Origin: Elsinoe ampelina
Lineage: Eukaryota
Assembly: GCA_010093995.1 (NCBI GenBank)
Contig: ML992503.1
Location: 2,062,919 to 2,126,918, forward strand
Reading direction: 5' to 3'
Length of the DNA: 64,000 bases
Shown: positions 57,121 to 60,202 of the stretch, piece after piece
How positions within the stretch are numbered: position 1 is the first letter of the stretch
Layout of the letters: each line of letters begins with the position of its first letter
The notes under the pieces: model-generated
What the model saw: only the letters and a program-made list of their open reading frames with translations
Databases searched by the model: none
Told to the model about the DNA's origin: nothing
Program-made: the position numbers and the translations under genes

Positions 57121-58635
57121 ATGTCGACCTCACTTGAGACCCCCGAGGTCACCATCGTCGACTGGGATGGCCCAAACGACCCGGAAAACCCCTTCAACTG
57201 GGCAAAGAGCCGCAAAGTGGTCATCAATGTAATTTGTTTGCTCGCCACCTTGAGCTGCAATGCTAATGCCACGGCTCTTACCGTCGCTTGGAGGGTTACA
57301 AATCCGATATACGGAATCAGCGATGAGACGTTTCCCAATTCCTACTGGTCGGTGACCAGCTGGACTCTAGGAGGGTCGCTCTTCATGGCATGTCTGCTGC
57401 CTTTGACTGAGGACTATAGCCTGAGATGGGGCTACCTGATCTCGTACGCTGGGCTCATCGTCTTCACCATTCCTCAGGCGGTCATACATAACTTCGCTGG
57501 CTTCCTGGTCTTGCGATTCTTGGCAGGTGGATGTGTGTCCATGGTGGCCAACTGCGTGGTGGGCATTATCTGCGATGTATGGGGAGAGGAACGCAGTCGC
57601 CACTTACCTGTCTCCACATTCATCACGACCTATCTCGCTGGCACGGCACTAGGCCCCGTCTTCGGTGCAGCCATCTTGAGGCGATTGGACTGGACCTGGA
57701 TCATCTGGATACAGGTCATTTTCCATGCCACACTGTTCACCCTTATTGCTATCCTGCTAAAGGAGACTAGAGGCTCGGTCATTCTTCGTCGAAGGGCAGA
57801 ACTCATCCAAAAGCGGACAGGCCGGCCGGCGGTAGCTGTGACAGACGTCAACAGTCCACCAGCTGTCGAGATCCTCAAGATCTCTCTTAGAAGGCCGGTC
57901 TGGATGTTCTTGACCGAGTATGTGGTCTTTACCTTCACCATGTGGTCGGCATTTTCGGTTGGGTTGGTGTACCTCTTCACACAGTCAACCGAGATCGTGT
58001 TCACAGATCTTTATGGATGGACGCCCCTCTCAGCAGGATACGTCCAATCCTCAATCGCAATTGGCATGCTCATCGCTTGGGTGGTCAACTTCTATAGCGA
58101 GCGTGTCTACTTTGCATCGGCTAGCCGCAACTCAGAGGAAGTCGGTGTGCCGATTCCAGAAGCACATCTATACGTCTCGATCTTCGGGACCTTCGTCGGT
58201 GTCCTCGGTGGAATGTTCATCTATGGCTGGACCGCATATCCCGCTGTACCCTGGATCGGACCAGCTATTGGGCTCGCGATGGTCGGCTTCGGTATCAATA
58301 CTATCGTCACAGCTGTCGGACACTACTTGACATGCTGCTACGCTCGCTTTGCCATCTCGGCATGTGGCGCTGTCGGTGCAGGCGAGAACCTCTTTGCATC
58401 ATTCCTGCCACTCGCAACGATGGCCATGTATCGTAAACTCGGGCTACACTTCCCAAGCACTATCCTCGGGATACTAGCAATACCACTTGGTCTCGCTCCC
58501 GTCATCATGGTCATCCGAGGTCGCCAGATTCGCGCCAAGAGTCCATTTATCGTCGAGGCCAGGTATGAGAGCAAAGACTTGGGCGTACAGGGACTGGATA
58601 TCACTGAGCAAGAGTTGCGGACCCCGCCTCGTTGA
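57121..58635 (+). CDS. MFS drug:H+ antiporter (DHA1 family)
   Basis: VDWDGPNDPENPFNW, LRFLAG, GPVFGA, ETRGSVIL and PEAHL motifs; 504 aa, intronless. Confidence 0.9.
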   Translation: MSTSLETPEVTIVDWDGPNDPENPFNWAKSRKVVINVICLLATLSCNANATALTVAWRVTNPIYGISDETFPNSYWSVTSWTLGGSLFMACLLPLTEDYSLRWGYLISYAGLIVFTIPQAVIHNFAGFLVLRFLAGGCVSMVANCVVGIICDVWGEERSRHLPVSTFITTYLAGTALGPVFGAAILRRLDWTWIIWIQVIFHATLFTLIAILLKETRGSVILRRRAELIQKRTGRPAVAVTDVNSPPAVEILKISLRRPVWMFLTEYVVFTFTMWSAFSVGLVYLFTQSTEIVFTDLYGWTPLSAGYVQSSIAIGMLIAWVVNFYSERVYFASASRNSEEVGVPIPEAHLYVSIFGTFVGVLGGMFIYGWTAYPAVPWIGPAIGLAMVGFGINTIVTAVGHYLTCCYARFAISACGAVGAGENLFASFLPLATMAMYRKLGLHFPSTILGILAIPLGLAPVIMVIRGRQIRAKSPFIVEARYESKDLGVQGLDITEQELRTPPR

Positions 58636-59581
58636 ACAAACGGATCCCGGTCTTGCTAAGCAACACCTGGATCAGCTCCAGAAAGAATCTCCCTAACTGA
58701 TTGTACGATTCATTCACCAAAGAGTCCAAGCCGGCAATCTTGCGGGGACGAGACCTCCCAGTGCTTTTGAGGAGCTGAAATAGCCTCTTGCTCTGCCTCG
58801 TGATCATGACCTGCGCATATCATGAGAGGTACCGAGCTGTGAGCCCGGAACCATGCCCTGGTGTTCCAGGATACAACCGCATTGCTTCGATACGGGCTGC
58901 GGATATGTCGCAATACTCCTGGTCTCACTACTAACAGCACTTTGGTCTCCTATGTCAGGCAGCCTGCATGTGAGTCGCGGGCTGGACGCAGTGGCTGCAG
59001 CCAGCCGAGTAGCAGGTTCGAGGGAGCACTGCATACGGTGGAAGTCGTATGGGCTGGTGAGCCTGTTCAGCCTAGTCAGACTTGCCCTATCGATGTAGCA
59101 GCATGAAGTGTGATGTTTGTTATGAAGCAAACGTCTGAGAAACCAGGGACGCTTCTACGCGCAGTGGAGGATATCTGTGGTGACGCTTCGAAGATGACTG
59201 CGACATCAGAGCGAAGCTCACTGGAGGATCGCAGGCTAGGTGCATTACATCAATTATTGTTGTAATTTGTTCGCTGGTTGTCCCAGACACCGCAGTGGAA
59301 TGGAGCTTTGTTCTCGCCATTCACACAATTGTCTGAGTTGCTACACCTTAGATATTCCATCGTATCACACCATTTGCTCACATTTGCTCACCTTGTTTTC
59401 CCCCCTTATAATTGAATCTGATGACCAGGATGAGCTGGTGTTGTCACAGCTGAATGGGGGAGTCTCGGCATACCGGTGGAAAGCTAAGCCGAGCCCCGAG
59501 ATGTACATTCATATTGTAGCAAATTTTTCAAACTGTTCTAAAATTCGCTACAGTCGTCCGACGGTGGTGATTTTTCTAAGA

Positions 59582-59724
59582 GGCGCTCTGGCCGAGTGGT
59601 TAAGGCGGCAGGCGAGTTTTCAGCTCGATCCAAGCGATATCCATGGACTAATAAGTATCAGACTCGAATGGCTCGATGTCATCTGCTCTCTTCGGAGGCG
59701 TAGGTTCAAATCCTGCGGGCGTCG
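59582..59724 (+). tRNA. tRNA-Ser(CGA) with two intervening sequences (59612-59661 and 59669-59680)
   Basis: Acceptor GGCGCTC/GGGCGTC with G73, A box TGGCCGAGTGG, B box GGTTCAAATCC, long variable arm CTC-TTCG-GAG. The anticodon arm GCAGA-CT-CGA-AA-TCTGC forms only after both inserts are removed (81-nt mature body). Confidence 0.9.
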
Positions 59725-59729
59725 TTTTT
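59725..59729 (+). terminator. RNA polymerase III terminator (T5)
   Basis: TTTTT immediately after the tRNA discriminator base. Confidence 0.8.
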
Positions 59730-60202
59730 GGACTTGTTTTGCTCTTTCAGAGTGACAGCGGACATTGTGGCGACAACCTGGGTTGTTGCCGCTGTTTTTG
59801 GGCTGGCTTGGAGTGGTTAAAGATTTGGTGAGGTGAGGTGATGAGGTTGTCGCAAATTCTGGTGTGGACCCCTGAAGCCATGCCGAGCCGCAGGGGTCAG
59901 CGAGCATGGTTTGATAGCTGCAACAGGTCTTCTACACTTTCTTGGAATCATAAACCATCCGCTAAAAGTGATGCATGGTGATCAGAATACTGTGTCCAAG
60001 TGGACTCTGTTCAACCTCTGAGCTGGGCAGATAGCAAAAACACTGTGAGCAATTTACCACCGCCGCAATCACGAGCAAACAGGGATCTTCGTGATCATAG
60101 GATAAGTCATGACATTATGTACCCTCCCTTACTATGCAGTCTTCCGTTCCAACCTTCTCACCAGTTTCCCCCTTCCTAATCCATCTCTCACCCGTCCCCT
60201 TA

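Follow-up and report, generated by a model that had tools for sequence, protein, structure and literature searches.

The 64,000-nt stretch of Elsinoe ampelina DNA analysed here (the window) contains a nuclear class II tRNA-Ser(CGA) gene that occupies 59582-59724 on the plus strand and is interrupted by two inserts. One of them, at the usual place next to the anticodon, has the features of a canonical tRNA intron, and the other, within the anticodon stem, carries a full set of spliceosomal signals. We consider it somewhat probable that this is a Pol III-type tRNA-Ser(CGA) gene whose transcript needs two unrelated splicing systems. As far as we found in the open literature, the combination of a spliceosomal-type insert and a canonical tRNA intron in one tRNA gene has not been described previously.

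Organization of the tRNA-Ser(CGA) gene

The gene and its signals were delimited as follows.

59582..59611, plus strand: exon 1, tRNA positions 1-30, comprising the 5' strand of the acceptor stem, the D arm, G26 and anticodon stem G27-G30 (ARAGORN cloverleaf after insert removal)
59589-59599, plus strand: A-box-like TGGCCGAGTGG in the D arm (read from the sequence)
59612..59661, plus strand: insert 1, 50 nt at 30/31 in the anticodon stem, candidate spliceosomal-type GC-AG intron, with GCGAGT at 59612-59617, CTAAT at 59648-59652 (branch A at 59651) and 3' CAG at 59659-59661
59617-59620, plus strand: T4 run within insert 1
59662..59668, plus strand: micro-exon ACTCGAA, positions 31-37, with anticodon CGA at 59665-59667 (sequence and ARAGORN)
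59669..59680, plus strand: intron 2, TGGCTCGATGTC, 12-nt insert of the canonical tRNA intron type at 37/38 (ARAGORN without insert 1)
59681..59724, plus strand: exon 3, positions 38-73, comprising A38, the 3' strand of the anticodon stem, the long variable arm, the T arm, the 3' strand of the acceptor stem and discriminator G59724 (ARAGORN)
59703-59713, plus strand: B box GGTTCAAATCC in the T arm, the single B-box match of the window
59725..59729, plus strand: T5 run, a Pol III terminator-like site directly 3' of G59724

Four forms of the gene were assembled from the window sequence, and each was run through ARAGORN. With both inserts removed, the program returned an 81-nt tRNA-Ser(cga) that is clean, all stems being intact and the class II variable arm and G73 present; with insert 1 alone removed, it returned tRNA-Ser(cga) with a 12-nt intron in the anticodon loop. 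The boundary of insert 1 can slide by up to 3 nt to the left, CAG ending both exon 1 and the insert, and among the four possible boundaries only the one given above provides GC..AG ends. The two inserts stretch the spacing between the A box and the B box by 62 nt. No decay is seen in the tRNA body, in either box, in the terminator or in the C32:G(-3) pair of intron 2, and the boxes and terminator point to Pol III as the polymerase that would transcribe the gene.

An assembly artefact is excluded for this locus. Its sequence is present in contigs of three sequencing runs from two studies, in which all sampled words matched, and a contig of run X3 agrees with the window over 59474-59885 with 0 differences. 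At position 59184, the window has C and one low-depth contig of run X6 has T, which could be either a strain difference or an error.

The gene was not reported by standard searches: default ARAGORN found 0 tRNA genes in the 64-kb window, and Rfam at gathering thresholds gave 0 matches there. When introns were allowed, ARAGORN misread the raw gene as tRNA-Glu(ttc) with a 48-nt intron. We rejected the tRNA-Glu(ttc) reading because its anticodon stem would be mismatched and because it disregards the serine-type body. Fungal annotations will lack or mislabel genes of this kind.

The intron at position 37/38

Fungal tRNA-Ser(CGA) genes have a canonical intron at 37/38, and the sequence-only reading had assigned the second interruption of this gene to that type. 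The details it gave hold in the sequence: TGGCTCGATGTC lies at 59669-59680, exactly between A37 (59668) and A38 (59681); the TCGA it holds at 59673-59676 is the complement of T33-A36, the sequence of which is likewise TCGA, a palindrome; G59678, the third base from the end of the intron, can pair with C32 (59663); and the exon left between the two inserts is ACTCGAA (59662-59668). The same is true of the T4 run inside insert 1 (59617-59620), which had been noted as shorter than the T5 terminator after the gene (59725-59729). ARAGORN sets intron 2 one base to the right, at 38/39, and the sequence allows both placements; the placement at 37/38 gives the usual A38 together with the C32:G(-3) pair. 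In position, short length, pairing with the anticodon and the predicted 32:(-3) pair, intron 2 resembles the canonical intron of fungal tRNA-Ser(CGA) genes, and nothing about it is unusual except the neighbouring insert 7 nt upstream. Judged from these sequence features, the reading of intron 2 as a typical eukaryotic 37/38 tRNA intron is supported.

Spliceosomal signals in insert 1

Insert 1 begins with GCGAGT directly after exonic CAG, has a CTAAT whose branch A lies 10 nt from the end, and finishes with CAG. Among the 127,900 segments of 50 nt in the window, both strands included, only one combines a GYRAGT start, CTRAY at 8-30 nt from the segment end and a YAG end, and this segment is insert 1. 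Taken singly, the three signals occur in 96, 8597 and 3468 segments, respectively, and the product of their frequencies is 1.4e-6. Because the limits of insert 1 are set by the tRNA structure and not by the signals, the match is far beyond chance. The 5' splice site conforms to the consensus G[TC]RAGT as its GC variant, which is the weaker form. The length of 50 nt is comparable to that of a 56-nt intron, verified by an RNA contig, which lies 140 nt upstream on the other strand.

A bulge-helix-bulge fold around insert 1 had been suggested by the sequence-only reading as something to look for, and no such motif was found: one or two of the four central pairs could form at each of the four boundary placements. 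Together with the full spliceosomal signals, this supports the view that insert 1 probably differs in kind from intron 2.

Two resemblances between the insert and the anticodon region were also assessed. The complementarity of CGAGT (59613-59617), at the 5' end of insert 1, to ACTCG (59662-59666) of the micro-exon, to which the sequence-only reading had drawn attention, is present; however, it is no greater than chance would give, being expected in about one quarter of cases in which a GYRAGT 5' splice site lies next to a CGA anticodon loop. The motif GCTCGAT, common to insert 1 and intron 2, was equalled or exceeded in 305 of 2000 shuffles, and the idea that insert 1 is a duplicate of the intron 2 region was rejected on this basis. 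No further copy of insert 1 was found within the 64-kb window, where the best other match is 14 nt long.

Predicted folding of the precursor

When the anticodon arm with both interruptions is folded in silico, the stem pairs 27-30/40-43 form and insert 1 makes a hairpin of its own. The C32:G59678 pair is present in all predicted folds, and the hairpin between the anticodon and intron 2 is predicted too. The prediction with insert 1 in place puts the first G of the insert, and not A31, opposite T39; the two final bases of intron 2, paired with A31 and with the last G of the insert, are not bulged in it. Because these two bases pair, the bulge at the 3' splice site of intron 2 would be lost in the unspliced precursor. 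A predicted 6-bp hairpin, CGAGUU/AGCUCG, covers the 5' splice site of insert 1. Unusual stability of the pre-tRNA or of insert 1 was considered and rejected, the z values against shuffled sequences being -0.24, -0.09, -0.50 and -0.57.

Transcripts across the locus

Of six sequencing runs that matched the locus, none is labelled as an RNA run; contigs of four of them, X3, X4, X5 and X6, were compared with the window. X4 and X6 contributed 4 contig pieces each, none of them over 59404-60105, and X5 contributed 0. One X3 contig, 3169 nt long, spans 58000-59417 and 59474-59885. It leaves out the 56 nt in between, which begin with CT and end with AC on the plus strand, and so defines the following feature.

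59418..59473, minus strand: 56-nt GT..AG intron of a Pol II transcript (X3 contig joins 59417 to 59474)

Since the contig skips a GT..AG intron on the minus strand, and since its depth is also uneven, X3 must contain RNA. The minus-strand exon that runs from 59474 to at least 59885 lies antisense across the whole tRNA gene, and both inserts are kept in this antisense contig. No joint at 59611/59662 or 59668/59681 was present in the contigs of the runs, among which the single one covering the gene is antisense, and contigs lose rare forms.

The antisense transcript gives a mild indication that Pol II is able to traverse the tRNA gene, and the gene may perhaps not be strongly occupied by Pol III factors. 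The transcript extends from 59885 or beyond to 58000, reaching the 3' part of a convergent MFS gene. It has no convincing reading frame, the longest open frames being 103-116 aa; either a long non-coding RNA or an extended 3' UTR of the Duc1 gene could account for it. The neighbours in the window are genes for an MFS transporter, a Duc1-domain protein and a Lon protease. The Duc1 protein best matches proteins of Elsinoe batatas (86%), of E. ampelina (96%, over a protein that is partial) and of E. fawcettii (72%), and further Dothideomycetes come next.

Analogous tRNA genes in metagenomes

Metagenome contigs were scanned for a class II D-arm motif followed by GYRAGT within 8 nt, a pattern that tRNA genes without an interruption are expected to show only seldom, T33 being an obstacle to it. 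Of the 23 loci recovered, six become tRNA genes after removal of G[TC]NNGT..CTRAY..AG segments of 45-71 nt:

L001, reverse strand: Leu(taa), 57-nt GCAAGT insert at 31/32 and a 20-nt canonical intron
L010, reverse strand: Leu(tag), 59-nt insert at 28/29 and a 27-nt canonical intron
L020, reverse strand: Leu(tag), 50-nt insert at 26/27 and a 16-nt canonical intron
L016, plus strand: Ser(tga), 71-nt insert at 31/32
L015, 288-467, plus strand: Ser(aga), two inserts, at 33/34 and in the T stem (soil metagenome)
L017, reverse strand, at the same offsets as L015 once oriented: Ser(cga), two inserts, at 33/34 and in the T stem (soil metagenome)

L001, L010 and L020 thus repeat the architecture of the window gene: the anticodon arm holds an insert of spliceosomal type, a canonical intron follows at 37/38, and the exon between the two is 6-11 nt long. 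L001 lies on a 688-kb contig and, like the window gene, has a GC 5' splice site. All eight analogous introns in the six genes carry spliceosomal signals, with branch distances of 9-22 nt. A run of T4-T9 follows each of the six genes at 0-10 nt. In the eight introns (427 nt in total) there is no run of T5 or longer, where the frequency in the flanks would predict 3.9, a control that is biased by the terminators which the flanks include.

L015 and L017 are orthologues from two related organisms. Exon by exon, they agree at 33/33, 37/39 and 9/9 positions (79/81 in total), and one of the two changes is in the first base of the anticodon (AGA vs CGA). In the introns, by contrast, only 27/48 and 23/50 positions agree, and identity in the flanks is 46% and 37%; the intron positions and the signals GTGAGTA, TAATCC and terminal AG are kept. 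The 9-nt last exon serves as the 3' strand of the acceptor stem, but only if the T-stem intron is removed precisely. This pattern of conservation is good evidence that introns of the L015/L017 type are spliced and that their tRNAs are used.

Fifteen of the 23 loci gave no tRNA with or without segment removal. They include five near-identical loci (L003, L004, L012, L013 and L022) in which the 5' part of a tRNA, with acceptor strand and D arm, runs directly into GTAAGT; removal of any segment of 35-130 nt gave no tRNA from these five, which could be copies of a repeat derived from a tRNA or of a gene whose interruption is longer. In L007, the tRNA-like gene is uninterrupted. L002, on the reverse strand, has a serine-type body with a GTGAGT insert after position 33, and after removal of 72 nt ARAGORN reads an anticodon aat and a 2-nt 'intron' in it, so the loop is not clean.

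Relation to known introns

In the open literature searched, outside which subscription-only papers lie, no description of spliceosomal introns in nuclear tRNA genes was found. Reviews on tRNA biology treat tRNA introns and spliceosomal introns separately (PMC10275265, PMC12530127, PMC13149111), and tRNA splicing is presented as independent of the spliceosome in reviews of 2014, 2023, 2025 and 2026. The word stem 'spliceosom' is absent from two reviews of tRNA intron diversity.

Introns of mRNA type in fungal RNA genes that are not transcribed by Pol II are a known kind; what would be new here is the tRNA gene as host and the accompanying canonical intron. One close precedent is U6 snRNA. Introns of mRNA type interrupt U6 in Schizosaccharomyces pombe and in Rhodotorula hasegawae (Tani and Ohshima 1989, 1991; PMC5855946), and S. 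pombe U6 shows that a fungal Pol III transcript can be a substrate of the spliceosome (PMC5855946). The U6 introns and insert 1 are alike in their length of about 50 nt, in their spliceosomal signals and in residing in a gene for a small structured fungal RNA, which in the case of U6 is transcribed by Pol III. However, a tRNA is not a component of the spliceosome, and the rationale offered for U6, that proximity to the catalytic centre permits reverse splicing, is inapplicable to the window gene. Unlike U6, the window gene also has a second intron, of the endonuclease type.

Spliceosomal introns are also reported from rRNA genes of ascomycetes and from U1, U2 and U5 snRNA genes (Bhattacharya 2000; Takahashi 1993, 1996; PMC5855946). 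These resemble insert 1 in being spliceosomal-type introns of fungal non-coding genes, some of them not transcribed by Pol II, and differ from it in gene class and polymerase. The 2018 review of U6, in enumerating RNA genes with such introns, names U6, U2, U5, U1 and rRNA, and tRNA is absent from that enumeration (PMC5855946). Multi-intron tRNA genes of Thermoproteales and of Cyanidioschyzon merolae are like the window gene in having two or more interruptions, some in stems, and very short exons (PMC4033280, PMC9602550); however, their introns are cut by the endonuclease at bulge-helix-bulge motifs, whereas insert 1 is without the motif and has spliceosomal signals instead.

A further point of comparison is the introner-like elements, which are said to have been reported in Dothideomycetes by van der Burgt et al. 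in 2012. Insert 1 comes from the same fungal class and has complete splice signals, as these recently gained introns do. However, introner-like elements are defined by many similar copies in a genome, and insert 1 is without a second copy in 64 kb. Insertion of an introner-like element into a tRNA gene was not found in the literature searched.

Processing of the transcript and alternative explanations

In the pathway that we propose, Pol III would transcribe about 143 nt by way of the A and B boxes and stop at the T5 terminator. The nuclear spliceosome would remove the 50-nt GC-AG intron between G30 and A31, which would make the anticodon stem continuous, and the tRNA splicing endonuclease and a ligase would then excise the 12-nt intron at 37/38. 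The tRNA endonuclease of budding yeast acts on the surface of mitochondria after nuclear export (PMC4090602, PMC10275265). Because the predicted fold loses the bulge at the 3' splice site of intron 2 while insert 1 is in place, and because the yeast endonuclease is cytoplasmic and bound to mitochondria, the analysis favours an order in which the spliceosome would act before the endonuclease, an order that the sequence-only reading had taken to be compulsory. Splicing by two machines had been put forward by the sequence-only reading; the two types of intron and the analogous genes elsewhere make it credible, and no spliced RNA was seen.

The most serious alternative is a young, disabled pseudogene, in which an intron or an introner-like derivative has been inserted at ..CAG/A.. 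and stays unspliced while other genes supply the UCG tRNA-Ser. We regard it as a possible explanation of the locus, though a rather doubtful one. Insertion could have occurred by reverse splicing or by transposition, and a recent one would leave the tRNA body intact. The undecayed state of that body, of the boxes, of the terminator and of the C32:G(-3) pair speaks against a pseudogene. The RNA contigs contain no spliced form, and an antisense Pol II transcript crosses the gene; the T4 run in insert 1 could end some Pol III transcripts early, and the 5' splice site is of the GC form and lies, by prediction, within a hairpin. Dothideomycetes, moreover, are reportedly the class in which introner-like elements have been described, but an origin from such an element sits poorly with the lack of another copy of the insert in 64 kb. 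Against a disabled gene stands also the completeness of all three splice signals. Finally, inserts of this type recur elsewhere, and the conservation of the exons of L015 and L017 is sensible only if their introns are removed.

Two other explanations are improbable. Spliceosomes are normally recruited to Pol II transcripts, and insert 1 might be spliced from a longer Pol II precursor that is then cut by RNase P and RNase Z, in the manner of the tRNA-like elements of lncRNAs. Since the region is transcribed by Pol II, recruitment of the spliceosome would then be ordinary. However, the sole oriented evidence, the intron at 59418-59473, indicates that Pol II transcribes the other strand; the gene has both of its boxes, A and B, intact and T5 right after the discriminator, and all six analogues likewise have a T run after the gene. 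Least probable of all, in our judgement, is that the tRNA endonuclease removes both inserts, insert 1 being a non-canonical tRNA intron such as those of Cyanidioschyzon merolae, some green algae and archaea. Multi-intron tRNA genes with introns at non-canonical positions are indeed known (PMC4033280, PMC9602550), and the 5' end of insert 1 can pair with the micro-exon; but the bulge-helix-bulge motif fails at four of four placements, with at most 2 of 4 central pairs, and a substrate of the endonuclease has no reason to carry full spliceosomal signals, which the eight analogue introns carry too.

With somewhat less conviction than we attach to the two-system reading of this single gene, we suggest that fungal nuclear tRNA genes include an unrecognised class with true spliceosomal introns, processed by the spliceosome and then, in genes that have a 37/38 intron as well, by the endonuclease, of which the window gene would be a working member, and which standard finders miss.

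Implications

If the proposed pathway is true, two splicing systems that are held to be unrelated act successively on one RNA of 143 nt, and the precedent of S. pombe U6 extends to the largest class of Pol III genes. Such a gene would provide a natural substrate for studying how the spliceosome is recruited to Pol III transcripts, as well as a built-in test of the order and the compartment of processing. Fungal tRNA gene counts would also be too low, default finders missing genes of this kind. The finding bears, furthermore, on the gain of new spliceosomal introns.
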